Source: Candidatus Omnitrophota bacterium
GTDB taxonomy: Bacteria > Omnitrophota > Gorgyraeia > Duberdicusellales > 4484-171
Assembly (NCBI GenBank): GCA_028713415.1
Contig: JAQTOI010000003.1
Coordinates: 1 to 60,962 of the forward strand
Direction: 5' to 3'
Length of the DNA: 60,962 nt
Under the pieces are notes generated by a model that was given only the letters and a program-made list of their open reading frames with translations, did no database searches and had not been told where the DNA came from. This document shows, one piece after another, positions 15,101-39,100 of this stretch; the first letter of the stretch is position 1, and each line of letters begins with the position of its first letter. A program made the position numbers and the translations under genes.

Positions 15101-18100
15101 TCTAACAAGATTGGGTAATCCCGAAATAACTATTTCGCCGGCTCAAAGCGCCTCCGGCGTTGTTTCTTCTCCCGCAAGAGATAGAGGTAAGGAACAAAAA
15201 AGTAAAAAGGAGAGTGCCGGGAAAATAACAAAGGCAAGGATTGAGGCCGCAAGGTCAACTTCATCCCCCGCGATAAAAGCGGTTATCCCGGACCTTGGAG
15301 GTGTCATAGTTAATGTCAACTATGCTTTGGTTGCGCAAAGCTTGGCGCGGTATAGCAAATTAAGCGCGCAGGCGATTGAAGAAAAATGGTTCGTTTCCGG
15401 AGCGCGGAAATTGTCCGATTTAGGCGTTATCGATGATGCGGAGTTTATCAGGATGATGCGCCAGGATTTGCAGTTAGGTGATATTGATGAAGAAACGTTT
15501 ATTAGAGTTTTTAATTCCGGATTTGAAATAAACCGAAAAATGGCGGCACTGCTTACTGCTTTAAAATTACAAGATCTCAAAGTAGCGATTCTCTCAAATA
15601 TAGGGACTATACGCTATAAATATGTAAGAGATTGGCTTACGCTTGGAGGCCTGGATATTAACAGGTTAGACGGATTTTTTGCTTCCTGCGTACTAAAGAT
15701 GGTTAAGCCCGACCCGCGTATATATAGATATGCTTTAGAAAGGTTAGAAGTCGCAGCCAGCGAGGCAATTTTTATAGACGACGTTTGGGAAAATGTAAAG
15801 GCCGCGCAAGCATTAGGTATGACAGGAATCCAGTTTTTGAACGTGGAAGATTTAACGAAACAATTGATCCGGCTAGGAGTCATCAACGCCGCAGACCTTC
15901 AAGAAAAGAGGGTTTTCTCCGTGATATCGTCTCCTGCTTCCGACATCGAAACCACGCTGAAAGTCTCAAGCGTTATTCCACAGGAGGTAATTTTAGAAAG
16001 ATTGCGCCAATATGCTCGGGATAGATTTACCGCGAGATTGCTTGGTAAGGATAGAATGGTAATCCCTGATTCTCTTGCTGAAGCAACGCGCAAGAGCAGA
16101 GCGCCACCGGCCCTTCGACTCCTTCCAGTCGCTCAGGACGTCGGCACGAGAGTGCCTCCAGTATCTTCAAGCCCCTTGCAACAAGACAGCCACCCGCGCT
16201 ATTCGCTGCAGCATTTCTTTGAAGAAGGCTTAAGAAGATATAATCAAGAAGGTTTTGTTTGGGCAGATAATTTTATTTCCCAAAATAGCCGGGCAGGTAT
16301 ATTTTCTGACTCAGGAAATGGTGCATATAACGGTCGCGCTTTTTTTGACGCGGTGCTCAAATTAATGCTTGTCCCCGGAGAAGTTGGCTTGCATAAGGGG
16401 TTAATATGGATTCTGCAAAGACAGGATTTAGCGGAAATTTTAGGCGAGGGGGTATTGAAACCCGGAGAACGGCAATGGATTATTCAAGAAGGATTATCGA
16501 TGTTTGCGCATTTACAGCCGCTATTGTTACCTCGCAATGTTTCTCCTTATAACAGTGATATTGGCGATGCCCTACGGGATTTAAAATTCCATGCCGGCGA
16601 TGAAGGAAAAGTGGCTCTCACTCAATACGATCCTTTTGAGGTGAGGCTTACGCATACTAAAGTCGAGTGGTTTAAGGGGAGGCTTTACCTGCGCTTACGG
16701 GCTGGCGAAAAGGTAGAAAAGATCCTGTCTTTTGATATGGCAGAAAAAGAAGAGTCCCCGCAAACTATTTCTTACCGGTGGCATATTGAACCTTTGCGTT
16801 ATAGAGATTTCCTTGATTTAGATTTTATTGTTGCTGATACAAGCGGACAATTTTCATTTGCCGTTGCGCACCGGCATTTCGAATTTATCGAAAAGATTAC
16901 CCCGCAGAGTATCCCGCTGGAAAAAATAGATTATCCGAAAGTGCAGGAATTAGAGGGTATAAACGTAATCACTTTTATAATGGAGGCAATGCTGCTTAGT
17001 GATGTTCTTAGCGGCGCAATGAGCGGCGGCCTTGGAATACTTAACGGTGGTTTCCTGCGTGCTTCACGTTACTCAGGCGCCAATTTATATTTTGCCTTAC
17101 CACGTTACCGCACAGGAGCGCAGCAATTTATGGCGGATGGGCAACAAAAGGTGAGGAAGGGTGTTGGATTGGATTATTCGATTTTACTTAATGGTTATGA
17201 AGACTCACTTGAACGCTGGGAAAAAGTAAAAGAGGCGGAAGTAGAATTTACGCTTGAGGGCCAGCAGATAAAAACCAAAGTTACGCTTTTAAAATTGGCT
17301 TTAAAGATTGACGCTCCCAGGCCAGATGTCCATATATTATTAGTAGATTTGACTGATGATGTTTCTGGCGCTTTATACCCCGCCAAGCCTAATTCTAAGG
17401 AGCGCTTTAAACAGGCAGCATATTTTGGAAGAGCAGCGCTTGCAGCATTAGAAAAATTAGATATAACTCCCCAAATACTGCGTTTTCATGAAGGCTATCC
17501 GGCAATCGCGACCATACCGGATTTGTTTTGCCATCCGGCCGTATCCCAAAATCCGCGTTTTATGCAAGCAAAAAAGGCAATATTGGGCTTTAACCACGCT
17601 GCCCAACCACAAGCTAATCCTTATATTTTACCGTGGCATATAGAATCTATTCTGGGTTATTCTTTATCGGGAGATTTTATTACCGAGCGTATTATTGATG
17701 GAAGGACTTTTAGAGTGTATGACCCATTTTATGCTTTAAGCAATAAAGCGGTGCGCGTGGGAACGGTGAGTTTAGAACATCTTCGGGTTATGCGGGAAAC
17801 TTTCCCGGAATTTGCGCACAAATATTTCACCATAGAAGATTCTATTTGGCCGTATTTCTGGATGTTGCCCCAGCAGCGGCAAAGAGAGGGCCGGGTGCTT
17901 GGTTTAGAAGAAATTTGGAGTGCAAAAGCGCTGGCAGAAGCGCGGATGATTGGCTACATTAAAGGTAAATCCGGAGTTGAGCTTATTTCCGGAAGGCCTA
18001 CTATCGTAGAGGCCAGGCGTATCGCGGATTATAAAGATAACTTATTTTTTACGGGCATGCAGGGAAGAGATGGCCTAAAAGGTATTTACTATATTACCGG

Positions 18101-21100
18101 CGAGCCGCAGGAAGGCGCATTAGGTTTAAATTTTATCGCAGCCGGCACTGCCCATGAGGATGACGAGTTAGGCCAAATTTGGCAGCAGGAATTAAGAGGG
18201 TTTTCGCGAGATGAAAGATTGAGAGGAAAATTTGTTTATTTTACCTGGACGCCGGAGGATTCAGCCTATATTATTCCAGGCGCAAAAGCGTGTTTACAGA
18301 CTTCCATACCGCCGTTAGAAGCTGCCGGCATGGCAGACATGAAGCACATGATTTGTTATAACTTGCTTGTTTCAAGTTATACCGGCGGGCCGATTCAGCA
18401 CATTACTAATATACTGCATCACAGTCCCGGGCCATTCAACGCAAGGCCTATGCGAGGCTGGAGAGAAAAATTAGCAGCCTGGCTCAAATGGTTTTATCAA
18501 TATAAGGAAGCCGACGACTACGGGAATGGCTATTTATTTGAACCGTTCGACCAGATGAAGCTGCAGGAGTGCTTGGAAGATTTATCCGCGCGCTTCTACG
18601 CGTATATATATCATGAAGAAGGCCGTCAGCCGCGCGATGTTCAATCGCCCAACGAATATTGGCTTAATTCGGTCCGGTGGTATATGCAAAATCGCCCGCT
18701 AGCAGTCCTTACCAACATGCAAAATGCGGCAAGAATGCTTCCGGTGGTGGACAGCCGCACTGCCTCAATTAAGTTTTCCGATGTTTACGCAGAAACACAA
18801 AACAAGCAGCTTGATTATTCGCAGTATCCCGAATTATTGCGCCGCACGCTTGATGACTTTCGTGCTAGGCTAAACGAGCAAGGCTCATCGCCCACGCGCC
18901 GAGAAAATGTAAATAGCCGTAGCTTTCTAGGCGCTTCTTCGCCGCTAAAAGAATTTGGCAAGCTTGAGCGGGATGTTTTATGGAAAGCAATGAATTCCGG
19001 AGGCGGCCAATATGTAATTATAAGCAATAGGGATGGAGCTAATTTATTTTCTGCTTTTGTCGATGGGCATCGTAGAGAAAGGCCTTCAGACGAACGCACG
19101 CAGCAGAAGCTTTCCGCTGTCGCAGCTGCCTTCACCGATGCAAGAAGAAAAATCTTACAAATCAGCAGGCACGCAATCGATAGAGGAGAGAAGACTGCCG
19201 AATTGATTATTAAAAGACCGATTACGGTTGCTTCTGAGTTATACATGGTGTTAAAACTGCCTGGAACCGCCATCATGGAAAGCGGAGAAGCTTATTCTGC
19301 GGCAAATGACGAACTTGGTAATTTAACGGTAAGAAAAGATTCTCTTCAAAATGCAGATGTTAGGCGAACCAGCGCTACCCGTAGAGGTGAGAGAACCATA
19401 ATTTCAAGAAAAGCATTTAACGACATTGCTGTTGCTTATCCCGCTTTTGGCCATACAGCAGTTGTAACGCTTAATCAAGGCGCCAGCCTTAGAGGAAAAA
19501 GATTAGAACAGCATTATCAAGGCCTTCTTATGCAGCGCATAATTCTTGAGGGATTAAGACGAGAAAATCTCATCGATAGCCCAAGATATCAAAAAGAAAC
19601 GAGCCGTATTACCGAAGAACTTAGGCTTTTGGCTTTCGAAATTGATATTGATACAACTTTCGGTCTTGATGACTATTCTGCCGGAATTATTACTGTCAAC
19701 GAAGAACAGAATCTTGCAAGAGAGCCAGTTTTCGGTATTCCGCCAGCAATAATTTCAGATATTAAACCTATGGAATTTTTAGCCGGCCAGCTCCAGGCAT
19801 TTATACAGCGCCCATCAGCCCCGTTGACTCCGGAAAACAGAGAAATTTTGCAAATCCTTAAGTCAGCTTGGTCTAGCTCAAAGTTAAGAGTAACGATTGA
19901 TGCGCATATTTTAAATGTGATGGTTAACGTTACTGTCGTTGACGTTGATGACGCAAGGCAGCTTACGGGCACTGCAGGAAAGAAGTTTAGAGTAAAGCTT
20001 GAAACAGGAGTAGTGGACGGAGAGGGGATACTGCATGTGTATATACCTTTGCGCGTTTGGAACGAGGAAAGTGTGTCCCGCGCGCCTGGTTTATTCTTTG
20101 ATATAAGCAGGGAAATAATATTATTTTCTCGCCAAATCGATATTGAGAAAATTTTTACTTCTGGAAAAAGTAGCGGCATAACCTCTTCGCCTGCCTCGGA
20201 GAAAGTGTCCTCCAGTCTGGCAGAAGAAGCCAAATATGAGAACCAGCATAATCCTGCGAACGACAGCGCAGTACAGGCTTTTCATCTGGCTTCCGGAGTG
20301 TCTATTGAGGATATTCTTTGGCAGACAAGGCATGCCTGGAAAACAAACCCCGGAGAAAAGCCACATTTTGATTTAAGAGAATTTTTTATCGCCATCTGGG
20401 ATCGGTTAAAATATCGTGGCCCTTACGCCTACCATCTAGGCATCACTGACGCACGCATCAGAATTGCCTTCTACAAACGTCAGCTCATGTTAGTTTTCAA
20501 ACGTAACTCCGATGGCACTTGGTACGCCACTACCGAGTCCCAAACGGAAAGAATCACTTCGGTTAGGCTTGAACATAAAATTGCCGACATTCCTGAAAAT
20601 GCCTGGGTAGGTGAGGAAGAGCGATCCCAAACCTCTTCGCCTGTTGCGGATGACAAGTTCCCCACAGGTGATTCTTTTGATTTCGTCTGGGATACGCCGC
20701 GCGAAGGCCGGCGCGTAAATAATGAAGGCCGCCTGAAACAAATTAAAGCAATTACAATGCGCTTTGGAGGAGTGGTTCCGGATATAGAAGTTGCTGCGCA
20801 TCTTGGAATACAAGCTTTAACTTTACGGCGCTGGGCTAAACAAAGTAATGTAGATTTAGAAAGTTTGGGGGTTGTACATGTGCGTTTTCATATCGGAGAT
20901 GAAGATGTTCAGCTCGACGATGAAGTGCTTTGCAAGTATTATATTTTAGAGCTGATGTTTTTAAATATGGCACTGATTAATTTGACTAATAGGCAGGCTG
21001 ACTTGCGGGAAAAAGCCAAATGGGAAGAGCTAGCGCCGGATGAGGCAGAGGAGTTTGGGCACGTTGACTGGGGCTTGAGCCATATTGGGCAATATTTGAG

Positions 21101-24100: not shown

Positions 24101-27100
24101 CCCTTCTTCCGTGGCTTACGGCGGAAGAATTATGCGCCGCCTGCCGCAGCCCTTCGACTTTGTCCGGAAGGCTCGCACAAGCTCGCACCCATTATTATAT
24201 ATAGGTAAGCAAAGCAGGGAGATTTCATCGCCTTTTGCCAGTTTATGGTTTAATGGGGCCAGGTCAGTCGCCTGGCTGAATGTGCATGGGTTTGTTGAAA
24301 ATAAAACGCAAAAAAAGGTTCTTGAAGTGCAGGGAAGAACTGCGTTGCAATGGGCCGGCCTCCTTAAACACGCTTTTGATGTCACAGCCTCTGTAAGCCA
24401 TAAAGAAATGCGTACCTACGCCAGATATCTTTTTAGGGATGTTATACAACAAGTCGATACAATTGTTATCTGCGGGCATTACTTCTATGCTATTTTTGAT
24501 GAAGGCGGCTGCATAGAGCAGGCAGTAAGAGGGATATGCGATGCTTTTGGAAACAGGTGTTTTGAGCTGGTATTTCCTCTTGACCTGATTGAACATTTTG
24601 TGCGAGAAGGCTATGCTGTAAGCCATGATGATTTGTTGGAGGTTTTAGGATTTACGCAGTTAAGCCCAAAGACTAGCCGAGTATATTTTGACGGTGTTGT
24701 TGACCGAGCATGGAATCCGCTAAATTCCCTAAAACCAGTTCATGTCTTTAAAACCACGCAAGCAACACTACAGTATCTTGCATCTTCTTCTATTGATAAT
24801 TTCGGTTCCCTCGAAACCACAAAGCGCGCACCGGCTGTGGATAGGTCAGCCATGGCAAGTTCTGCTATTCTAAGTATCAAAGAATATAACGATGAAGCCG
24901 AGATTTTGTATGGCGAGTTTCGTGAAGAACTCGCTAGAGCAGGTAACGATGAGAATTTTCGCGAAATTTCAACAGCGCAAGCATTACGAAACTTTCTTTA
25001 TCAGAATATGCCTGCGGGCTGCGAAAGAGTCAGAAGTTATTGGCTCCTGACACATTATGAGGCAATTGATGAGAAAAATATTCAGGTAGCTGGCCGTGCC
25101 CTCGAGCAAATAAAAACCGGTACCTTTAAGCCTCCAGTGCACACATCAATCCAAGCGCGGCGCATTGAGCGCGTAATAGGGTTTTTAAGAAATTCAGAAG
25201 TACTCGCAAGCGGAGACAGGGCCAAGCGGCTGGGTTACGAGGCGATGAGGCTTCAACGGCAGCTCGCTGAGGCAATAAAAACTGCGTATTCAGCCATGCC
25301 GGAAAATCATCAACAAAATGGCAACGGAAAACAGCATCTTCCCAATACCCCTAAACGAGCTGTGCACGAAGCAAACGCTGCCCTTGAAGCAGGTGATTTA
25401 GCTAACGCCAGACAGCTTTTAGCTTTAGCATACAACTTATTAGCGCATACACCTGATGCAAAATTGGCCAGACGAGCAGAGAAGCTTAGAGAACAGATTG
25501 CAGAGAAAGGAGGAGCTTCTTCGCCGAATCACGGCAGAGGTTACAGTCCCCACGATTTTATTAGTAAAAACCCACAACTGCAAGGCGTTAGTGAGGCCAG
25601 CCAGTTAATGGGGAAGGGTTGCGTTATCGAAGATGAGTTAGACTACGCCATTCAAAGAGTTAATGGTATCCATGTTTTATTGAACGAATCTTCTTTGAAC
25701 GATGCGGCCTCTACACATGCCTTTTTAAATCTGTCACAAGCAAATAGCCGTTTAGCCTCTGTTCTGCTTGGATTTGAAGATGAGCATATGTTTACGCCAG
25801 CTAATGATGCCGAAAAACAGGCTTTAATCAGACTGGTTAATCTTCTTAATTATGCAGCAGGCACGACCTTAGGAGTTCTTCGCGCTGCCGTGCAAGGAGA
25901 AACACTTAAAATTATGAATCACAAGCCAGGCGTTATTCGCGCAAAGAATCTAAAGCCTGAAGATATCAGAGAAAATACCGTCGCGCAAGCAAGGCGTGGC
26001 CTCGCCCAGTGGATTTGGGATGCAAGGATTGGCACTAATTTAACGATTAACACCATTGACGAAGGTATTTTAGATTTGGCAATGCTTACCTTTAACGATC
26101 CCCAGACGCTTCAACGAGGATTGAGCCGTTACATTGATAACTTGGTTATGTTTGCCCACACTAACGTTCAAATCTATGTTTTTGATGATACCTTAGAGCA
26201 GGAAGTGGCACGTCAAAATCAGGATATCGTGCGTTCTTTATCTGGGGTGGCTAAAGAGAGAGGATTGCACAAGGGTGTAATTTACATTGGGCCGGAAGAC
26301 AGGAAAAAGTATAAAGAGGCACTTGTTAAAATAGCCGCTCACAATACTTCTGAACTAAAAGAGCAAGTGCGTTTGTGGGTAGAAGACACGCTTTATCCCA
26401 GCGAGGGCGGCAACCGTAACTTTATCCAGCTTTATCTTCAAGGCCGCAAAGTCCTCATGGTTGATACCGACAGTTTACCTTGCGTATTTGCATTTAGCGC
26501 GTTTGCATCTAAAGAGCCATTGAAAGACGGTGGATTAAGGTATAGGAATCCTTTAACTATCTATGAGATATTTGGGAACAAGAAAGCAGATTCGTCAACA
26601 GAGTTTGCGGTGGTTGAAATTCCAGTTGACTTTATAGCTGGTTTTAGCAGGTTGTTAGGAAAACCAGTAGAAGATTTACAAGGGTATGCGAAATTAGCCC
26701 GTTCACTCGATCTCATGGACAGGCATATACAAGAAGAGTTGCCCCAAGACGGGGGTATTGTTACTCATGTCAGGTCTATCTCTACAGGCGATGACGATTT
26801 TACCATAACCCACATTTCCGAGGCTGTTCCTGGCGCCATTGAAGAGTTGTTAGTTCAAAACAATGGTATTGAAGCGGTAGGGATGCCGCTTGAGCTTCTT
26901 GAGCAATTCCTTTATCTTGGTAAGCCGTATTATCAAGCTGCGTTGCTTGCGCCCATACACTACCCTGTTGTGGCCCGTAGAGGTTTAAGTTATGGTAACC
27001 AACTTGCTATTGATTTACGCGAATGGGTTACCCCAATTATGGTAGGAATGCGAATGTCAGACTTCTCAGCTTATATGCTGATGTCATTGGTCAATCCTGC

Positions 27101-30100
27101 AGCAAGAGTAGGGACTTCGTCTATAGGCGGGGGGCATTTAAGGAGTACAAATCTTGCCGCGCGAAGCGGGCTGGTTGCGGAAGCAGACAGCGAAATTATG
27201 ATGTGTCTTTTCTTTCATCCTCTTTCGATTATTTTAAGCTGTCTTATCGGCCGTGACGCAAGTAAAAAGCCTTCCCAGGAGGAAATTGACGCTATTTTAG
27301 CAGAATTTGGCCAAACCTATATCCAAGATGCAGCGAATATTCAATTGCTTTACCCGGGAACTAAAGAGCGCCTTAACCATATTACTTTGGCTGTTTTGTG
27401 TGCGCAGAAACTGGCTTCTGCATTGGAAACTTTAGATTTTCCTAAAGCACAAGCCTTGCGAAATTTTGCAATCCAAATGCGCGCGCAATTTGGTCAAAGT
27501 ATAGGGGATTTAGATAATGAAAGAGCAGTTGAAGATTATATACTCAGATCGCAACAGGTGGGAAGAGAACAAGCTCTTCGTTTCGCCAGCATGCTTATCC
27601 ATTGGGGAGTTATTTTGCAGGCAGCCAGAGAAGTCAATAAGGCATTTCAAAATTCCCCAGCAGTTTCTTCTAGCGTAACCGATTCATTCACCGGCATCTT
27701 TGGCCCTCAAGCGCAAAAATTTGTCGTAAGCACAAATTTTAGATTAGAAAATATCGGCGCGGAATTGACGCTCGCGCTTAACAGGAGGGCAGTATGCAAT
27801 CTCTACAGAGTTACTCGCGAAGATTTCTGGCACGGGATTTTTCTTCGTGAATACGAAGATATTTCGATAGAAGAAACAGCTAGCGTGCGCCAGAGAGTCA
27901 TCAGGGGGTTGGCCGCCCGCATTATCGCAAATATATTCAGGGTTGCTTTCTATGATTTGTTGTATGAATTGGCAAAAGATGAAGGAGCGCCGGCTGTGTT
28001 GTCCATGCTACGCGATATTATTTTTGCTGAAGGTAATCACGTTAATTTTGATGTAGAAATTATTTATTATCCTTTACTCATAACGCTTTTTTCTGAAAAA
28101 AGAGTAACCGGTATGATAAAGCGCGTATCAGGAAAACTGGATTTGCAAAGCATTAGAACAGATTTGCTGGGTATACCTGTGAGGCTTGGCTATGGCCAAG
28201 ACGAAATATTCTTTGCCCTATGGGGGCAAACCTATGCTTACCTGCCGTCTTTACTTACACGAGAAAACGACTTTATTGCGCATCATAAGAGGATAACGCG
28301 TGAAGGAGCGGACAGAAATATTTTTGCCGATATACCACTGCCGCCGCAAAAAGAGGCTTCAAGCGCATCGCAAGCCCTGTTTGATGTTCAGGAAAGGACA
28401 AGGCAGTTTATAGAAGATTTATATTACAGGTACTATCTGCGTTTAGGTTTGGGCAGGTATGATGAAGCAGCCGGAGAAATATTAGTGAGTTCTCTGCGTC
28501 CCGTGAAATACGGAATGTTTCAACATACTCCCTTTGAAATCTTAGACGAATTGGTCTCTTTTGCCGGCATTGTTCCCGAATCTAAAATTTACATGATTGG
28601 CGGAGACGGTAAAACCGCGTATCTATTGGCTACTTATGTTGCGATAGTTGATCTCATGGAGGTTGACCGTAAGGTTTTTAATAGAGGTTATGCAGTGCGC
28701 ACGCAGCTTAAGAGAGGCGTTACTACAAATTTTGGCGGCCAGATGCTTCAAGAGGATTCGCAGTATATGGAAGATTTGCTTGGCCGCGTGCGGCTTATGC
28801 TTGGAGACGCGTTCCATAAACATCCCGACCTTTCAAAATACGACGCTTTATACCTATATTACCCTGAACCCGTCCAGCACCTTCAGCTCAGGTTCCTTTA
28901 TACGCTAAATCGAGTATTATCTGACCCTATAAAAGGCCTGCGGGATGACGCGCATTTTATTATGTTGCGTCAGCACGGATATGATCCCCTGCCGCTAGAG
29001 AATCTGACGTTAGCCGCCAGCAAAGCAGTTACTGTTGATGTTACGGCAGGAGTAAACGATTACACGCTTTATAAATATCGCGTTACACAACGCATGCCTT
29101 TTACATATCGAGTTTCATCGCCTATTTCTATTTTCGGCAGCCTCAAAACCGCAGAACACGCCCCACCTGACGCCACGCGCTATGCGCTATGCGCTTTGCG
29201 TTCTGGCAGTTCGCCTGCCTCGCTGACAACGAATCAAGGCGGGCCTGTTCAAACGGCGGCTGCAGCTTCGTCCGCAGTAGCTTTACGTACGCATTATCTT
29301 GAAACAGGTAAGGTTAGTTCAACCACAGAAACTTTGAATTTAAGCAGGTCAATGCCGCTGTATCCGGATAGTATGATTCAGGTGCACTTGCAGACTCAAG
29401 GCGTGATCCATTACAGGGGCCCGCCGTTGGCAGTTTCTTCACCGCTCGCGGGTAAAGGACAATTCGCGCAATACGGTTACATATCCGATGCTCATCCTCT
29501 GCCGTTGGCCCTGCGGGATTTGCGAAGATTAGACGCTCTTCTAGATCAATTCATAAGATTATTCCATGGCAATCTTCTAAACACACAGCTTTCAAGCGTA
29601 ACGATTGAGATTGAAAAATTAGAAGAAGAATTGGGCTTACGCATGAGGCATGACGCATTCGAAAGAAAATGGCTTGGACAAGTTTTTACAATCTATCCTT
29701 ACGCGTATGCATACCCCACTTTAACTGCTGTCTTGCTGCACAATAGCGCTTTAAGAGAGCTTAAACGACTAATGGCAAGCCAGCTGCGAAAATCTCCCGA
29801 GTCAAATATCGTTATACGCATAGACGGTAAAACCGGCAGCGGTAAAACTATGCTCGCTCAAATACTGCGTGAGTCTTTTGGGGGATTCATGGCACCCGAA
29901 GCAATACATATAAGCAACGTTCAGCGCCTAGAGGCGCTTAATGACGGTCCTATAGATTGTTTAAGACTACAGGCAAATCCCGAAAGTAAAGTTTTTATCG
30001 TTGAGGGGGTGCATCAACCAAAGCGTATAGAAATTTCAAATGCGAGGCCTATACATCAAATACGCGTATTTACAGAATTGGCTGACAGATTACGCTACAC

Positions 30101-33100
30101 GCGTATCTTAGAAAAATACGGCCGCGAACTTACTGGAGAAGAGCATTTCTTTGACGAAGATGAACTCGCTATGCCTGCGATGATGCATGCGCTTTGTCAA
30201 ACCCAGGTTCTTAAACTTGCGCGAATAAAAAATATATTTGACCGTTATTGGCAGGTTGATCCCGCTCGTAGGCAATCCGATATCGTTATGAGGACGGCTG
30301 ATGATTTCGAATACGCGCCCAGGGCAAGTTCAGCGATTATGACAATAGCGAGGTTGCTTGAAGCGCATAGAGATGAGTTAAGAGCAAACCCGGGTAATAC
30401 CTTAACGGATGTTGCGCGTATAATCCATATGTCGCGCCCGGCAATAAGTAGATTCTTAAGTGTTAATCACTGGGCAAGAGCCACTTATAATATTCCTGTT
30501 GATTCAAGTAAACCAAAACTCATAATTCCGGAAGAAGGGGCAGAATTATTTCGTCTCGAAAGGCCTGACGGCGCAGGCACAGTAAAAATAATTGAAGTTC
30601 ACGTGGGGTCGGAGAATACTGACGCAAGCCCTATTGATCTTGCGTACCTAAGAGCCTATCAAATTCAAAGAGGTTTCATAGTGCCGGGACAAATTCCGGA
30701 AAGAGAAAGAAAAGAAATAGGATTAAGTAACGTTAGCGATAGAAATATCCTCAGGTTAGAGAAATGGATAGCCAGCCAATATCAAGAATTGCGACAATTC
30801 GCGAGATTAAAAGAATTCAGGACAAAGGTCGGCCGGCGCGTTAATCCTTTGGATGTATATTCCGGTTTAGCCATATTTGATTACAGAGTGTTAGTTGAGA
30901 GCAGGGTTAGCGCTGATTTCGCGTTCGTGCTTGTAAATGGCGCCGTAAGCATGTATGTCTTGAATCCCTATAATCCAAACCGGCCCGTTCCTGTTGGTTT
31001 CATTTCTCAAGAGGAAGGATTCGGGCAATTATTAAGCCGGTTAAGACAAGGGATTTTGCTGAGCCAGATTATTTCATTTCAAGGGCCACATTACTACGTA
31101 AATCCTGCTGAATTTACGAAAACACCCGATAGCGGTGCAAGTTCATCGGCTATACAACAATCTGGCACAGAAGGCGTAAAAATCGGCGACAGCGTTAAGG
31201 TTTGGTTCCAAAGGCTCGCTTATTTTGATAACAGTCGGGACGCTTCCGGCCTGAGGGGAGAGTGTATAACTGAAAGCGGACAGCGCTATGATGCCTTTGT
31301 GATTACGCAGGATTTGGGCTGCCGTATCCCCGTTAGCCGCGACAGCGGAAAATTTGAGTCATATCTGGCGAAAAATTTTATTGAACCTGGGAAAACCTAC
31401 AAAGCGAAAGTTGTAGTAATAGAGAGAGTTATGTTTTTATTTACCCCGAGGAGTTGTCTGGTTCAACCTCTTCCCCTCCTACGCTCTTCGAGCTTCGGAG
31501 GGCAGGCGTGGCTGGTGGGGTCCAAAGCATTTTCTTCATCGCTTTTCAATCGGTGGCTGCTTGTCCTACGAAGCCCGTCAAGGAGTATACGTACATATTC
31601 AAAGGGCGTAGTAGGAGTGGAGGACTGGGCGCCCCGGGGTTTATTGTTGTTACAAGCTGCAGCCGTGGCTGTTTGCCCTATATTATATATAGGTAAGCAA
31701 AACCGCTCTATTTCATCGCCTCTGGATATTTCCGGCAGCCTCAAAACCGCAAAGCGTACACCACCGATAGAGAAAGCTCATAAGCTCTTAAGCGCATCAG
31801 CTCTTAGGAGGAATGAGGGACGAAGGACGACCGCTTCGCTGGGACGAGTGACGAGGGACGAAGGGGGTTCGCCTGTTACCAGAAAGGCAAGTAAGTGGCT
31901 ATCTGAACAAGGTATCTTTTTGCCAATGGCGATCACAAATGAAGTTTATCCGGTAAGACTTGATCAGTCACGCCATATGACGGATGACCATAAATATGAA
32001 CTGCCTTTAGGGATAGTTTCTAATAATCGCTATATAAGAATAGCTGCCGTCGGTAAAGTAATTTACATAGGCAGCCATCATCACGGATCCTATCTGTTTA
32101 CCCTATTATCATATATTGAGAATTTGATCGATGGTACAGAAAACTTCGCGCATATTGATTTTAGGCATCATCCCGACAATGGTACTTTAATATCTAACCC
32201 GCCATCATTAGACGATAAAATGGCTGAACATATAGAATATATGGGAGGTAGTAAGAATGGCTGTGACCTTGGAGTGGCTAACTATATTACTGCACTTAAC
32301 CTGGTATTTCGTTATATGCGGTTGATATTCTTATCAACAGAAGTAACAGAATCTAATTATGGCGGTGCGCGTTTTGATAAAAAAGATCGTGTTTTCACTT
32401 TCAGAGAGCATTTAACGCATGGTATTGCAAGTATAGATTTAGATATTTTTAATGACCATTATAATTTGGAAAACGCCGTAGATGTATTGAACTTGATGGA
32501 ATATTTGGCTGCTTTAGTAAGCGAGGCGAAGGTAATAATGATTTTTGTTTCTCCGGGTTTCTTGGATAAAACAAGAGCCATGGACAATATTCTTCCTAGC
32601 TTTTTAAGCTTTTTAAGCGAGCGACTTGCGGCTCTTCCAGCACACAATTCAAATAATACCGGTCGTCCCTTCGTTTCTGTTCCTCGACGAAACAGAGTGG
32701 TATTCAATGGGCCTACCGGTTCCCCAAAAGTTTTTAGTCCGCAGTTAACCGTTAATACTTTAAGAAAAATATTCATTGCCAGTTCTCCTTATGCTTCCGG
32801 CAGCCTCAAAACCGCAATTCTTGCCCCGCCCCCATCAACAATGAGCCATGAGCTAATAGCTATGAGCTATGTCGGTAGTTCGCCAAGCATAATATTTCCA
32901 GAATATTTGTGCGCTCTTAAGAGCAAGTGTTTGATACTTCAACTACGAAATTCGTTTCATAACAATGAATTAATAGAGCTTGTTTTTGATCATCCGCAGG
33001 ATTTAGATAGTTTCTATGTAAGAGTTAATCGTAAGCTAACTGGCCGGGTTTTTCTACGCGACGAAGGAGATACCTTAAGGATCCAATGTTTTCATCCTTA

Positions 33101-36100
33101 CGCAAATAAAAAAGAAAGCGATTACGAAGGCCGGCACCATGCCACTGTAATCGTTGCCGGGATTGCCATTCTGGCACGGCAATATAGCAAAAAGTTAATT
33201 ACCGATAACAGGGACGAAGCGGCTTTAGTTGCTGCCTGCAAACGTAACTTTGCTGATGAGGTAAGAAATAAGGAGACAGAGTGGCTATCCATCGATAAAC
33301 TTCCGATAGGATTTTATGATTATCGCTTAGTCGGAGAGGTATTTACTGATACTGGCCGAAGCGCAATTTCTTCTGAAGGTATTGAGCGGGTTGCTTTTGG
33401 CTTGAGATTGGTCTTCTTAGAAGAGGAAAGTTATCGAGTTAAATATACGCACAATTTAAATACGGGAGAGGAGCGCGCAACTGATTTTATTGTCCGCGTT
33501 GATAGCCAGGGATATATCTATTACGCCGGCGAAGAAACAGAACTTTGGCCGCCAGATAGGCAACTGAGGATATATACTTACGAGAAGAGTTTGCAGCTAC
33601 AAGGCAGCCCCCGGCCTGTTATCTCTGATTATACAGTTAAAGTAATTTCTCTCAAGCTGGCTAAAAGGGCAGGCTATATGCCTTCTGGCAGCTCAGCTGT
33701 CCAAAATACTTTCGGCACCCTCAAAACCGCAAACCGCGCGCCACCGGCTCGCACAAATTCCAATTTCCAAATTCCTCCGGATTACAGTTCTTTCCCTGCA
33801 GAAGTAAGCAGCTCGTCGGTAAATAATCTTAGTATTTTTAAATGCCGGCCGGGACAATGCGTGAAATGTTGTGAGATTCCTATAGGAGTAACTATCCCTG
33901 ATTTACTGCGTATTCGGGAATATTTCCTGCAAAGAGGCATTGATAAGAGTTTTGGTAGATTATTTCAGGAATTAATTACTGGTTGGATAGTGTCGTTTAG
34001 TTTTGAACAATATATTTATGTAATTCCTAAAATAAGACACCCCTGCCCATTTATTAACTATCAACAAATGAGATGTCATATTTACAGCCACAGGTTTATC
34101 GCTTGTCTTGGTTTTCCAGAAATGGTATTAGCGGCCCGCACCCAAGGCCTCGCGGATGAGGTTAATAGCAGAGCATTGCAACAATTAGTCGAAGAAGGTA
34201 TAGATTGTGTTGATAGGGCAATGATAACTGATTCGAGAATTGAACTGATGAATAGGCTCAATTCACTGGCCTGGGACGAATATCACTTTACCGCAAGCCT
34301 GCTTGGAACCGAGATAAGTTATGCAGAATTAGAACATGCTAAGCTCACAAGCATTGACGGGATAAGGCAATATTTTGTCGGATGTGGGATGGAAAGGATG
34401 GCCCTAGATAAGGTTAGACAATTAAATAACCCAGATAATTTTGCTGCTTTGTTAGCTAAAGCTTCTCCTTATCTAAAGCGGAGGCGTTTGCTAATGGAAG
34501 ACATTGATGGGGCATCTTCCAGTTCTTCTCTGCAAAATAATCGCGGCAGCCTCAAAACCACGCAACTTGCACCGCCATATTCAGCTCATAGTCGACAGTC
34601 CATAGCATCTTCAGCAGTATCATTTGAAGTCAAAGAGCTTTTGCAGAAAAGGAAGAAAAATCGTAGCGAGTGGGTATTTATTCTTAGAAACTTATCCAGC
34701 AAATTTTCTGAAGGCACAGCCACAGCCAGCCGCATCGCAGAAATCTCTGACGGCAAATTAACCGCACAAGGCGTGCGTTCCGCCTTGGTAAAGCACTCTA
34801 TCATCTACGAAGAAGCAGGTATGGTGGGGGGTAGGCCTTCGAAAAGAAATAGCTCGAATGCCCACAAAAAATCCAGTTCTCCCGTCTTCTTTTCGAACAA
34901 AACCGCAATTCACGCACCATTCGTTTTGGCGCTTATTGAAAAATCAATCCGCGACAACATTGTTTCTTCTGCGGTTGTAACGCCATCGAAGGTATTTGTA
35001 ACTAACGAAGCCTATCCCGTGCCTCTTTTTAGATCAGGTGATATTCGAAACGATGATGTGTATAAATTACCTATTGGAGAGATTTCCAGCACCCGCTATA
35101 TAAGAATAGCTGTTGGAAGAAAAGTAATTTACATAGGAACGCATCATCATGGTGCGTATTTATTTACTTTACTTTCGTATATCGAAGGTTTGATTGATGG
35201 CTTAGAAAATTTCGCGCATATTGATTTTAAGCGGCACCCAGACAATTCTCTTATCACCAAAACCCCACCATATTTCGTGGCGAGCGTAGATCTGGATATC
35301 GTTAATGATCTTGAGAATCTAGAAACTACACAAAATATGAAAGATCTTCTGAAATGTGTGGCTGATGTGGCTGGCGAAGCTAATGTAATAATGATTTTTG
35401 TTTCTCCTGGTTTCTTGGATAAAAGACGAGCCATAGGAACTATTGTTCCTTATTTCGTAAATTCGTTGTTTGCGAAATTAGGAATTAATCCAGCTGATTT
35501 AATTTCAGAGGCTCAACCCGCAGGATATAGATATGCTTCATTCTTTTCCAGAGGACGATTGGTATTTAACAATGCTGGGCTAAAAAGAATAGCTTTTACT
35601 TCGAAGCTGTCGATTGACGCCTTAAGAGAAAAGTTTACAGCAAGTTCGCCTTTAAATACTTTTGACAACCTCAACACCGCAATTCATAATTTACAAGCTA
35701 ACATCGTTTGTAATAATGAGTTAAATGTTAAATCCGGCAAAGCGGAAGCATCTTCTGCTGCGGTAATAGGTTTATCGGGAATTGCTATCGTTTTATCCGT
35801 ATATTTGTTGATAAAAATAAATAACAGGGTTCAAGAACGGAACATAATCAAAATCGCTTTTATGAACGAATACGCGATAATTAAAGAATTAATCGGTAGT
35901 GAATTATATGATGAAGCAGTCCAAGCGCTACGGATTTTGATTGATAAATTGGAAAGAGGAATTGATGGTATCTATAATTTTGGTGATTTTGCAAATAGGG
36001 GAATCTTAAAAGAACTCTATTTTAAATTAGGATACTGCCTATGGTTTTTAGCCGAAGAAAAGTGGGATATGCGGGAATATTTATTAAAGGGCGCTTTAGA

Positions 36101-39100
36101 GGCTCTTAATAAAGCAGATAGCAATGAATCTTCTGCAGCGGACCTGATAGATTTAATACAAAAAGATTTACGAAAAGAATTGCAAAGCGCGGAAATAAAT
36201 TCTATAGAAGGCCAATCTTCGGGAAACACATTAATTAGAGGCTTAGAAGTTGTAGATGATGAGAGCATATGCCAAAAGAAATTTGAGCAATTTGAATATG
36301 CCGCAGCAGCAAGAAATAAGCAGTTAGCAGGCAAATGTGCTAAATTTTTGTCCGAAAGAAAATATTTTGGCCCGCAATACGGATTTCCAGATTCTAGCCA
36401 TAACACTTTTTTCCCTGCAGCCATTGCTATCCGATATGTAAAAGTAATGATGATGTGCCGCATGTACCGGGAAGCGGAAGATATGTTAAGGTTGATAATT
36501 TATAAAATACAAGATACTACGGCGGCAATAGATTTAGTTAATATCTATTATGATTTAGGTTTATGTTGTTATCGAAATAATTCTTTAAATGAAGCTGAGA
36601 TTTACTTCTCAAAAGTCCAGGAGCTTACAGGACAAGAAATTTTCTTTTTAAAGCAAATTCAAGAAACGCGAGGCAAAGGCAAAAATGCCAGTAGCTCGGC
36701 AGTATACAAACAGATACAACCAGTATTTTTAAAAGCTTTCGGCAGCCTCAAACACGCGCAACTTGCGCCGCCACTTCACGTATCAGGTAGCACGTATCAC
36801 GTCGCACGTTTTAAAGACCTGTTACCTGTTAACTGTGACGTGGGACAGGATAATAGGGGCAGTTCGCCAATCGAAAATACTTCCAAACTGCAAAAAACTC
36901 TTTACCAACTCACCTTAAACGCGCATCAGCCCACAGGAACGCGCTGGTCGCGTGTGCATTACTTTGCTACTTACCTTCCGGTTTTAGTGTCTTTGCTCGA
37001 TCCTGAGTTACGCAATATACACGGAAATAATCACCGTCCAATAAGGTTTAATTACAGCCTTTCTTTAAGCTTGTCCAAAGAAATTTCTACTTATACAGCC
37101 TCGATGTTAAGCATTATGAAAGGGGGTCCGGAGCAATTTAGGTGGGATAAACAAAAACGGCGCATTGGAGAATTAGTCGAAGAGCAGAAGCTGGACGAGC
37201 ATATCGCGTTATTGCTTAAGCCGTATAGAGAATGGACGGATGCTGACGTGCAGATTGTCGGCGTTCATCAATACTTTCTACCTTCCGACACTAAATACGA
37301 ATTGTGGCCGCAGTTTACCGAGTTCTATCAAAAAGCAGCTACCGGCAACGGCTTATTCAGTAAGGATTTAAAAGATGTACAAGGTTTTAGTGATAGCGAA
37401 AAGCTAACGGCTAAGGCGATGCTTTTAGGAATGACCCTTGTATTTTTCAACCGTTTTATTTTCGCCAACGGGCCGGCAGTTTTATCCGGTGTGCCGATTG
37501 ACAATAAACACCAGCCAGAGATGTTTGCCGATGACGAGGTTATTTATGTCGATGGAAACCGTAAGTGTTTAGAGAGCATGTACTTTGAGCGCAAGGTCGA
37601 TTTTACTTCTTACCTTAAAGTAGAAAACGAAAACCATTTTATAGCTCTTGCCTCAGATGATGCAAGCTGTAGCAGATTAGTTTATGAAATGACCAAGGCA
37701 ATGGCAATATTCCCTAATTTAATTGCCTTAGTTTCGATATCTAATGAATTAGCGATTGCCGATAGAGAATCTAAAACAGTAGAGGAAGTTATTGTTGGCG
37801 AGCGTGCTAAAGGATACGGTAAATATCATAAATTAGAAAGCCGCAGCGGCCAGATTGATTTTAGCATTTGCCCTCATATTATTTGCGCGGCCATTGCCGA
37901 ACAGCCCGGGCTCATGGAACGTTCCCAGGACGTTGAAAGCCAAATCATTCTTGCCAAGGAGCATTGCTATGATGCCTACGGAATCAAAATGCGCTGGGTT
38001 TGGAACGCCGAAGGTAATATGGACGGCCTATATTCAGGCTTGCTTAAAAAGCACGGCATTGAACTTGCTTATGTAGGAAATGACCACTTTGAAATAATAA
38101 AACAGGCAAACGGAATGGGCAACCTTAACCGTATGCAGCCGGTAACCTTTCAAACCGGCGTACCGCGCGCGAGATTAGTTAAGCTTTTTGGAAATTATAA
38201 CAATGAGTGGAAACCTTTCTTTTATAATCCCGACAGTCCTAATAATGAGGGCTTTATCTGGTTTAAGAGAGGAACAGGACAGGTGGAAAGATTCAGGCGC
38301 TACCATACTAATAGAGGCAGCGCATTTAATGGCTATCAGCGGGCGATGATGTTTAAGCTCTGGCAGGAATCAATGGGGACGATTCTCTGCCCCTATACTC
38401 AGGACGTCCGATATGTAGATTTTGTAGGGTTAGGCCCATCAGACCAGCAGGCTTTAGTTATGGCCTCTCATATTTTAGGTTGCGGTAACGTGCCTAACGC
38501 TCCGGCAACTGAACAATATGGTAGTCATCCTCAAGTAAAAATTGTTAGTGAGTTTACCGATATGGAGAATTGTATTCGCCGATATAGAGGAAAATACGAT
38601 GGTTCAATGATTTGGTGGTGGTACCTGCATACCGTAATCCACAATGGTATAGCTAATACAGTAACTGCCGGTGAAGTTATTAATCTTGCCCACCACCTGC
38701 AAAGACAGGGCGAGCCATCTTTCGCTCACATAGCGGTCCTTCCTTTAGGCACCTGGCATGGCGGAGCAAGCATTAGAGATTGGATAGGAGGTTGTTATGA
38801 ACATTCTCTTCTTTATGGTTATTTAAAGGCGGTTATAGAAGGTTTACTTTCTGCGGGAATTCCTTATTGGAGGAGTAAAGGCGCAACTGCTCAAACTGAT
38901 CAACTCTGGGAGAGAGGAATTTTTCTTGGCGCCCAAGTCAGTTGTTATGCCTGGCATCTCGTCCGTAATCCCATAAAAGACCAAAATCCCCAAGTCTTTA
39001 CGCAATTATTTTTCCATCACCTGGCTTGGACGATAGAGCGTGCTTGGGAGCTTGGGTTTAGCGTGGTGCCTCCTTTAGTAAATGGCCACGTGGCAGGATT

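Follow-up and report, generated by a model that had tools for sequence, protein, structure and literature searches.

Very long proteins of Omnitrophota include a 'multi-enzyme metabolic cluster' class (bioRxiv 10.64898/2026.06.07.730766; 10.1101/2023.11.21.568195), and the domains PF08323, PF00534, PF08241 and PF13419 co-occur in long proteins (bioRxiv 10.1101/2023.11.21.568195; 10.64898/2026.06.07.730766). The field has yet to settle whether giant bacterial open reading frames (ORFs) act as one protein or are cut, and at which points; the 2023 giant-gene study noted that information on cleavage points is lacking (bioRxiv 10.1101/2023.11.21.568195), and a term search of the full text of bioRxiv 10.1101/2023.11.21.568195 and 10.64898/2026.06.07.730766 returned no mention of linkers, junction motifs or spacer repeats. 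We analyzed one such gene from a Candidatus Omnitrophota bacterium (contig JAQTOI010000003.1, assembly GCA_028713415.1). The window, meaning the whole stretch of 60,962 nucleotides (nt), amounts to a single ORF, which resembles the giant multi-enzyme ORFs of Omnitrophota in being one frame of more than 10,000 amino acids (aa) tiled by many distinct enzyme Pfams, and whose architecture matches the multi-enzyme class. The element studied here is a core of about 36 nt that recurs at nine junctions between its modules.

141-60893, + strand: giant multi-enzyme polyprotein gene, 20,250 aa (ORF call and Pfam)

Viral polyproteins, in which a protease site recurs at every junction, also join complete enzymes without start or stop codons between them, and carry a short motif, conserved as peptide, exactly at the module ends. 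A recurrent short motif exactly at module boundaries was likewise found in the ORF, which differs from the viral case in being a bacterial-type gene for metabolic enzymes and in having many bipartite junctions with a disposable spacer; cleavage is here something that we infer. The tetrapeptides RAPP and RGPP are the cores of ribosome arrest peptides of the ApdA/ApdP class, in which the arginine is irreplaceable, replacement of alanine by glycine is fully permissive, and arrest occurs with the first proline codon in the P site and Pro-tRNA in the A site and is resistant to EF-P (PMC12992588; PMC10987492; PMC10951233; PMC7897499). They are also the most under-represented tetrapeptides of bacterial proteomes, E. 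coli having one RAPP and no RGPP (PMC12992588; PMC10987492; PMC10951233; PMC7897499). The consensus of the arrest core, located at the C-terminus, is (R/Q/H)-(A/G/D)-(P/G/S)-(P/G) with an essential arginine (PMC10987492; PMC12992588); HAPP is a demonstrated arrest core (PMC10987492), and release by folding of an upstream domain has been shown as a principle for arrest peptides (PMC4571824). Short sequences conserved as nucleotides and dispersed at the boundaries of coding units, as well as 7-nt arrays, are familiar from repetitive extragenic palindromic (REP) sequences and bacterial interspersed mosaic elements (BIME), miniature inverted-repeat transposable elements (MITEs), BOX elements and the cyanobacterial heptamer short tandemly repeated repetitive (STRR) sequences, and the core and its surroundings share these traits.

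The core repeat and its two halves

At nine junctions between 24.8 and 36.9 kb, an SSx motif is followed by the core of about 36 nt, a variable tail and a second SSx. The core is translated as FGSLKTAxxAPP and is present in seven clean and two decayed copies, at coordinates that a first-pass annotation of this DNA had given correctly. The bipartite arrangement described in that annotation is real: the 18-mer GGCAGCCTCAAAACCGCA, with up to three mismatches allowed, matched seven times in the window against 0.09 expected, and an nhmmer profile of the 42-nt region retrieved the seven clean copies with E = 2e-10 to 3e-9 and the decayed ones at 34898 (E = 0.23) and 35659 (E = 2.8). All nine cores lie on the + strand in frame 0 of the ORF, and nhmmer found none on the - strand. 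The repeat was also recovered independently of the 18-mer search, as family D1/D2.

24783-24866, + strand: bipartite spacer 1, SSS-idn-FGSLETTKRAPA-vdrsama-SSA; core at 24801-24836
29115-29216, + strand: bipartite spacer 2, SSP-isi-FGSLKTAEHAPP-datryalcalrsg-SSP; core at 29133-29168 (HAPP), heptamer array GCGCTAT at 29177-29200
31713-31874, + strand: spacer 3, SSP-ldi-SGSLKTAKRTPP and a 36-aa tail ending in GSP; core at 31731-31766, 8-nt array at 31774-31806, 7-nt array at 31841-31861
32781-32885, + strand: bipartite spacer 4, SSP-ya-SGSLKTAILAPPP-stmsheliamsyvg-SSP; core at 32796-32831, heptamer array ATGAGCT at 32841-32871, AlphaFold predicted local distance difference test (pLDDT) score below 50
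33690-33821, + strand: bipartite spacer 5, SSA-vqnt-FGTLKTANRAPP-artnsnfqippdyssfpaev-SSSS; core at 33711-33746, heptamer array CAAATTC at 33754-33775
34515-34616, + strand: bipartite spacer 6, SSSSS-lqnn-RGSLKTTQLAPP-ysahsrqsia-SSA; core at 34542-34577
34872-34973, + strand: bipartite spacer 7, decayed, SSSP-vf-FSNKTAIHAPF-...-SSA; residual core CAAAACCGCAATTCACGCACC at 34898-34918
35643-35759, + strand: bipartite spacer 8, decayed, SSP-lnt-FDNLNTAIH-...-SSA; 5' core at 35658-35685
36690-36869, + strand: bipartite spacer 9, SSSA-(12 aa)-FGSLKHAQLAPP-(29 aa)-SSP; core at 36738-36773, heptamer arrays at 36777-36809 and 36817-36836

The first SSx precedes the core by 2-12 codons and the tail runs for 7-36 codons to the second SSx, wider ranges than the 3-10 and 10-25 codons of the first-pass annotation. 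In six of the seven clean copies, [RHL][AT]PP starts 13-15 residues past the first SSx. The architecture, at first thought to mark nearly every junction, was found at nine of the 15 SSx clusters in the interval, the other six being five single SSA or SSS motifs and one single SSP; the second SSx that was said to close each spacer is replaced by GSP in spacer 3 (copy 31734). The core of spacer 1 is the most diverged of the clean copies and reads RAPA, resembling RAPPA minus one proline codon, and that of spacer 5 is the sole clean copy with an exact RAPP (33735). Spacer 8 owes its paralogy with spacer 4 to a duplication of the module that precedes it, and its 5' core is still about 78% identical to the spacer 4 copy (32799), with the A-P-P part gone.

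Mean pairwise identity between copies was 0.40 over the 30 nt upstream, 0.82 over the first 21 nt of the core, 0.49 over the two variable codons, 0.69 over the A-P-P codons and 0.26 over the 30 nt downstream. The modules flanking the copies are unrelated, except for the paralogous modules that precede spacers 4 (32799) and 8 (35661). With flanks that are unique and unrelated, neither an assembly artefact nor module duplication as the general origin of the copies is tenable. The possibility, allowed for in the first-pass annotation, that one locus had been collapsed or duplicated in the assembly is therefore almost inconceivable; the copies also differ from one another, share only about 36 nt, sit beside modules that differ and are in part annotated, and lie in an ORF that is open over 60.7 kb. 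Module duplication as the sole origin is ruled out, given that only the spacer 4 and spacer 8 copies follow paralogous modules.

The core is composed of two contiguous halves. The 5' half is a 21-nt stretch, TTCGGCAGCCTCAAAACCGCA, held at the nucleotide level, and the 3' half, x-[R/H/L]-A-P-P, is conserved as peptide only. Codons were resampled from the ORF's own usage in 5000 simulations that kept the amino acids of each copy. Across the first seven codons (F-G-S-L-K-T-A) the same codon was found in 89 of 105 same-residue pairs against 32.2 +/- 5.3 expected, a value that none of the 5000 simulations reached. The fixed codons include non-preferred ones: CTC (8% of Leu codons) in 7/7 copies, TTC (28%) in 4/4 and ACC (25%) in 6/6. 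The A-P-P codons were identical in 14 of 51 pairs against 13.4 expected, which means that their synonymous sites are random. The copies can therefore not all be equally recent, and what is kept in A-P-P is the peptide. In the 5' half it is the nucleotides that are held, or else repeatedly homogenized, for a reason that we can only infer. The conservation of third codon positions reported at first pass, and the 'DNA-level repeat kept in frame' built upon it, apply to the 5' 21 nt and not to the A-P-P part, which is kept at the peptide level only.

The core lacks stop codons in all three forward frames. That all nine copies share one frame therefore carries information (p = (1/3)^8, about 1.5e-4, if they had inserted independently) and argues against a freely inserting DNA element.

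Junction motifs, proline motifs and spacer DNA

SSP was observed 61 times in the ORF against 4.7 expected from composition, with the context consensus [AGSVT]-S-S-P-[LSA] (for example at 1212, 2268, 3420, 24225, 39384 and 47112). Its serines are written with AGY and TCN codons in many combinations, and SSP is therefore selected as a peptide. That SSx falls at natural protein ends follows from two homology ends and a fold boundary. Homology of the GlgB module to stand-alone GlgB stops at aa 19,591, with SSS at 19,596, five residues later; homology of the module upstream of the spacer 4 copy (32799) to its closest relative, P0121, ends in ...LRKI, three residues short of SSP. In an AlphaFold model of aa 10,583-10,960 (18 homologues in the alignment, mean pLDDT 80.8), pLDDT is about 90 through a helix that ends at the first SSP and below 50 at residues 304-338, which correspond to spacer 4 and end shortly after the second SSP, a prediction of disorder for the spacer. 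SSP is the general junction motif of the ORF and the best candidate for its processing sites. Target-site duplication as the source of the paired SSx was ruled out by the different codons of the two SSx of one spacer.

R[AG]PP occurs seven times in the ORF (four RAPP and three RGPP) against 0.45 expected, a 15-fold enrichment, and 0 of 2000 shuffles reached seven; HAPP occurs once. Six of the seven lie within SSx-bounded spacers, which make up 7% of the ORF, as do 10 of 14 [AG]PP, with PP overall unenriched (39 against 44 expected). The arginine codons of R[AG]PP are CGC, CGA, AGA and AGG, and nhmmer detected no DNA-level similarity of the relics to the core profile; R[AG]PP is therefore conserved as a peptide. 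The relics listed at first pass were all confirmed, and two sites had been overlooked (RGPP at 29415 and RAPT at 48258).

4557-4568, + strand: RGPP relic in a spacer SSP...SSS...SSP (aa 1451-1496)
12222-12233, + strand: RGPP relic between SSP motifs at aa 4011 and 4050
16098-16109, + strand: RAPP relic, 22 aa ahead of SSSP at aa 5342
29415-29426, + strand: RGPP relic, 7 aa ahead of an SSP
48258-48269, + strand: RAPT in a spacer, at the position paralogous to RAPP at 51555 (repeat D7)
51555-51566, + strand: RAPP relic, 7 aa past an SSP and 21 aa ahead of SSSS
60201-60212, + strand: RAPP in the last module, outside any SSx-bounded spacer

Among the clean copies the motif is RAPP in one, HAPP in one (copy 29136), RAPA in one (a weak case), LAPP in three and RTPP in one. 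About 30,000 aa of other giant multi-module proteins contained no R[AG]PP. The likeness to the RAPP/RGPP arrest peptides (ApdA, ApdP and the RQH family, and SecM with RAGP) extends to a core [R/H]-[A/G]-P-P with interchangeable Ala and Gly and retained Arg, to a conserved stretch of about eight residues ahead of the motif that would sit in the exit tunnel, and to free synonymous sites in the core, as expected for a nascent-peptide signal. The interchange seen in the ORF, with Arg kept, Ala or Gly allowed and both prolines kept, appears to match the functional profile of the arrest core, and by analogy it is plausible that the A-P-P/R[AG]PP part slows ribosomes. Known arrest peptides, however, come from small ORFs (80-200 aa) for secreted or membrane proteins; they carry a signal or transmembrane segment at the N-terminus, have the motif close to the C-terminus and lie ahead of a regulated gene. 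The motifs here are internal to 20,250 aa, recur at junctions and have thousands of codons after them. Leu in place of Arg in three clean copies is a further difference, and the nucleotide-level fixation seen upstream of the motif is no feature of known arrest peptides.

Heptamer-type arrays with differing units lie downstream of five of the seven clean copies. The micro-tandems noted at first pass at 29177-29200 and 32841-32871 are both real and have a 7-nt period (GCGCTAT and ATGAGCT); further units are CAAATTC from 33754, CACGTAG from 36777 and ACCTGTT from 36817, with an 8-mer array at 31774 and a 7-mer array at 31841 in spacer 3. Two further spacers contain AATGGCA arrays (48350 and 58973). 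The arrays in the window are short and imperfect (2.9-4.7 copies, 75-94% matches), unlike the long near-perfect non-triplet tracts in the ORFs of phase-variable contingency loci. A slip by one unit in a 7-nt array would shift the frame of all downstream sequence.

All-versus-all blastn of the window gave 12 dispersed direct repeats, of which 10 join two junction regions (18% of the window) and the remaining two are paralogous modules. The frame difference was 0 throughout and no inverted (plus/minus) matches were found. The non-core junction repeat families have 80-94% identity.

8405-8516 and 9302-9413, + strand: junction repeat, about 81% identity
9234-9281 and 12294-12341, + strand: junction repeat (blastn)
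24188-24233 and 31676-31721, + strand: junction repeat (blastn)
48183-48271 and 51480-51568, + strand: junction repeat (blastn), repeat D7
48318-48420 and 58941-59043, + strand: junction repeat, 91% identity, containing the heptamer array AATGGCA

Sub-families of the core are alike at the nucleotide level in the 3' half, for example the copies at 34545 and 36741. Some junction repeats hold GC-rich segments typical of intergenic repeats, translated as ...THPTTPRLRRTRMIADG... and ...FDYAHHE.... The repeats show that DNA is generally copied between spacers in this gene; slippage arrays, together with patches copied direct and in frame, show spacer DNA that behaves like non-coding DNA kept open in one frame. 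An independent ORF fragment of the SSP type (L046/P0168, JGI metagenome 3300037067), with 13 SSP against 0.9 expected, has a spacer patch identical at 35/35 nt in two junctions and three heptamer arrays (1882-1918, 6220-6235 and 6262-6284), all within SSx-bounded spacers.

Searches for the core elsewhere gave chance-like results. In the GTDB species representatives (596 Gb), the 18-mer was matched 35 times, each time singly, where chance would give about 17, and no match had an SSx/APP context. Two seemingly conserved pairs among them were rejected: L001/L023 lies antisense to a gene for a CDGSH protein and L002/L009 in short ORFs unrelated to the window, and neither pair has an Rfam match. 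There were 0 matches in IMG/VR, and a gapped pattern covering three window copies gave 10 chance matches in high-GC DNA among JGI metagenome contigs. An exhaustive HMMER protein search returned module-level homologues only, none with the core. The first-pass suggestion that the core is a former intergenic repeat, read through after gene fusion, agrees with spacers that evolve like non-coding DNA (heptamer arrays, junction-restricted repeats); against it stand the single strand and frame of all nine copies, the peptide-level selection on A-P-P, and the lack of an intergenic copy in GTDB representatives, IMG/VR and JGI metagenomes.

Different junction motifs are carried by other giant or multi-module proteins that have one module family in common with the window. 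In the set compared (P0137, P0162, P0150, P0122, P0127, P0168 and P0124), RSE[LM]R occurs 18 times in P0137, R[SA]E.R 20 times in P0162, DNGG six times in P0122 and SSP 13 times in P0168, and P0127 has the spacer peptide RTTPGNLGPGAMNIDEPF repeated four times. Junction motifs therefore appear to be lineage-specific, and short lineage-specific motifs with repeated spacers look general for such genes. To the question of where giant ORFs might be cut, this gene offers a set of rules: [AGSVT]-S-S-P-[LSA] at enzyme ends, disordered spacers between motif pairs, and lineage-specific alternatives (RSE[LM]R, DNGG). With the junction motif at the natural ends of enzymes and spacers delimited by motif pairs, module boundaries become predictable from sequence.

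Explanations for the core

The fixed 21 nt were examined for nucleic-acid signals. Folds of seven junctions gave z-scores of -0.6 to +2.8 and RNAalifold predicted no pairs, so that the RNA secondary structure considered at first pass is not conserved here; a small GCA...TGC hairpin spotted by eye did not survive. The 21-nt stretch was consistently unpaired and is C/A-rich. With these folds and no plus/minus matches, the core differs from REP and MITE elements in having no palindrome or terminal inverted repeat; it also differs in its single orientation and frame, in being translated with one half under peptide-level selection, and in that no intergenic copies were found. No Rfam family, tRNA or tmRNA was detected in the window, and no inverted repeats at the junctions. 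Internal promoters and terminators (27 and 14 sites against 27.6 and 13.1 expected) showed no excess, and the boxA-like antitermination site GCTCTTWA, considered for the tails, occurred nine times against 7.2 expected. Inspection by eye gave no convincing match to a sigma-54 promoter, an integron core site, uptake sequences or rRNA complementarity. Programmed frameshifting at CTC-AAA-ACC was rejected: the first stops in the +1 and -1 frames are 5-55 codons off, like the ORF-wide background (medians 10 and 8). Were a ribosome to stall on A-P-P, the 21 nt would be 10-30 nt 5' of its P site, where they would coincide with its 5' edge and be covered by the next ribosome behind it, a placement that is suggestive in position only. 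Alternatively, the 21 nt may owe their fixation to concerted evolution, that is, copying and gene conversion between junctions, where sharp-edged patches of identity are common. The copies all share one orientation and one frame, so that recombination between two of them, whichever they are, would remove or duplicate complete modules without breaking the frame; one such module-plus-spacer duplication is visible in the ORF.

The reading that we favor, tentatively and short of an even chance, is that the core is the conserved part of translated, in-frame connector cassettes in a giant polyprotein gene, which are copied between junctions, probably trimmed at SSx and probably provided with a translational pause. 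Each spacer starts at the natural C-terminal end of a module (SSx) and ends at the second SSx just ahead of the next module, and the paired SSx would serve as processing sites at which the spacer is trimmed away. [R/H]-[A/G]-P-P would pause or arrest the ribosome in the manner of RAPP/RGPP, or at the least act like an EF-P-dependent XPP motif, and would slow translation at module boundaries. The fixed 21 nt would be an mRNA- or DNA-level partner of this pause, or else would result from repeated copying or gene conversion among junctions, a process by which modules are shuffled as well. If motifs that are otherwise purged from bacterial proteomes, on account of the stalling that they cause, do pause translation here, this gene would be the first in which arrest motifs serve to punctuate a polyprotein internally. 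Its junction-restricted in-frame DNA repeats suggest how such genes grow, by copying of connector cassettes and recombination at them.

Several points weigh against this favored reading. Only two or three of the seven clean copies are of the R/H type (RAPP, HAPP and the weak RAPA), the others being three LAPP and one RTPP, though Arg is irreplaceable in characterized arrest peptides. A strong arrest fits poorly with the up to 18,000 conserved codons that follow, and it could not be permanent. Only about 16 residues would separate the first SSx from the peptidyl-transferase center when the ribosome is presumed to stall, and release by upstream folding is therefore not obviously possible. The R[AG]PP copies may share ancestry, so that seven are not seven independent events. 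A pause acting through the peptide leaves the nucleotide-level fixation of the 5' half unaccounted for. In the public collections searched there was no orthologue or second genome with the element. As to processing, Pfam scans of aa 1-20,000, where many modules are unannotated, gave no peptidase family at E <= 0.01.

A stronger proposal, which we regard as doubtful, makes the spacers programmed translation-arrest cassettes in which a RAPP/RGPP-type stall is coupled to the fixed 21-nt mRNA segment. The 60-kb ORF would then be translated in module-sized steps, with checkpoints or 'soft stops', and stalled or rescued products would be tidied by trimming at the flanking SSx; bacteria would here be using their most avoided tetrapeptide as punctuation inside a giant polyprotein. 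At the other extreme, the core may be a DNA repeat without function, leftover or duplicated connector DNA that was perhaps once intergenic, whose identity reflects recent copying or gene conversion and whose A-P-P is the ordinary composition of an Ala/Pro linker. We consider this somewhat unlikely. Junction-restricted nucleotide-level repeats are indeed general in the gene (10 of 12 blastn pairs, among them families D4, D5, D7, D15 and D16), L046 shows like patches at its junctions, the heptamer slippage arrays sit in spacers, the core sub-families (34545, 36741) are alike in their 3' half as nucleotides, and the decayed spacer 8 copy (35661) kept its 5' core identity despite a changed peptide. 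But the randomized synonymous sites of A-P-P, directly beside a near-invariant 21 nt, indicate copies that are not uniformly young and selection on A-P-P; R[AG]PP persists, with different Arg codons, in spacers that are otherwise unalignable; and all nine copies share one frame though no forward frame of the core contains a stop.

That nucleotide-level constraint, non-preferred codons included, would be natural if the 21 nt were instead a cis-element, such as a site bound by a small RNA or a protein, one of mRNA processing or one of in-frame recombination that exchanges modules, with the peptide as a by-product. The unpaired, C/A-rich stretch would suit this, as would copy spacings that are all multiples of 3, such that recombination between any two keeps the frame, and the one visible module-plus-spacer duplication. 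The idea is nonetheless quite unlikely. Searches for Rfam families, tRNAs and conserved structure found nothing, promoter, terminator and boxA signals do not exceed chance, alternative-frame stops lie at ordinary distances that lend frameshifting no support, GTDB, IMG/VR and JGI data have no copies that would mark a genome-wide motif, and no recombinase or partner RNA is known. The opposite emphasis is placed on the peptide if FGSLKTAxxAPP is a docking site or exosite for the protease that cuts SSx, or if the freed spacer peptide of 25-57 aa is itself the product. The regular distance of [RHL][AT]PP from the first SSx in six of the seven clean copies and the peptide-level selection on A-P-P speak for such a signal, and the junction motifs of other lineages (RSE[LM]R, DNGG) suggest lineage-specific recognition systems. 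Yet most junctions (single SSP) lack the core, which cannot then be required for cutting, the tails are hypervariable slippage products, unfavorable to a functional released peptide, the fixed synonymous sites are left unexplained, and no protease was found in the Pfam scans of aa 1-20,000; we find this account quite unlikely as well.

Enzyme modules of the giant reading frame

Pfam identified complete enzyme-sized modules along the ORF, which SSx clusters split into about 50 modules of 200-900 aa each. They include a starch/glycogen synthase GlgA module (PF08323, 1.9e-50), a branching enzyme GlgB module (CBM48, alpha-amylase and its C-terminal domain), GH77 4-alpha-glucanotransferase and other amylases, and MBL/beta-CASP nuclease, HAD hydrolase, methyltransferase, protein kinase, GDSL lipase and low-molecular-weight phosphatase modules; among the Pfam identifiers are PF08323, PF00534, PF08241, PF13419, PF02446, PF00128, PF02922, PF00753, PF10996 and PF00069. 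The region of aa 7,500-12,500, which holds the nine copies of the core, is almost without Pfam annotation.

The GlgB module (57000-58940) spans 96-99% of stand-alone GlgBs and is at most 59% identical to any in a collection of 5.8 billion proteins; the best relatives, which share 55-59% identity and carry names from several phyla, are all ordinary GlgBs of about 640 aa that stand alone. Marker genes are absent from the window. In the word-indexed protein collection, aa 10,500-12,260 had no homologues and aa 13,083-16,003 had none at E <= 1e-10. Judging from the GlgB identities and these two long stretches without word-indexed relatives, the source lineage seems poorly sampled in protein collections.

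One module family is present three times in the ORF (10212-10922, 31854-32987 and 34965-35861) and has stand-alone homologues of about 250 aa. It contains invariant His, Asp and Glu (HHxGAY...HID...HPDN...SVDLD), and its AlphaFold model has a weak likeness to ureohydrolases (arginase, agmatinase, formimidoylglutamase; Foldseek E about 6e-4, TM-score 0.25-0.38). Two antisense ORFs within the giant ORF, 18815-19276 (- strand, 153 aa) and 19673-20233 (- strand, 186 aa), are probably spurious. By eye, the module after the 51555 RAPP spacer (51600-52620, aa 17,170-17,490) is strongly hydrophobic and looks like a multi-pass membrane protein, and the start of the ORF (141-230) is a hydrophobic segment, LAVIAFLGWIIT.

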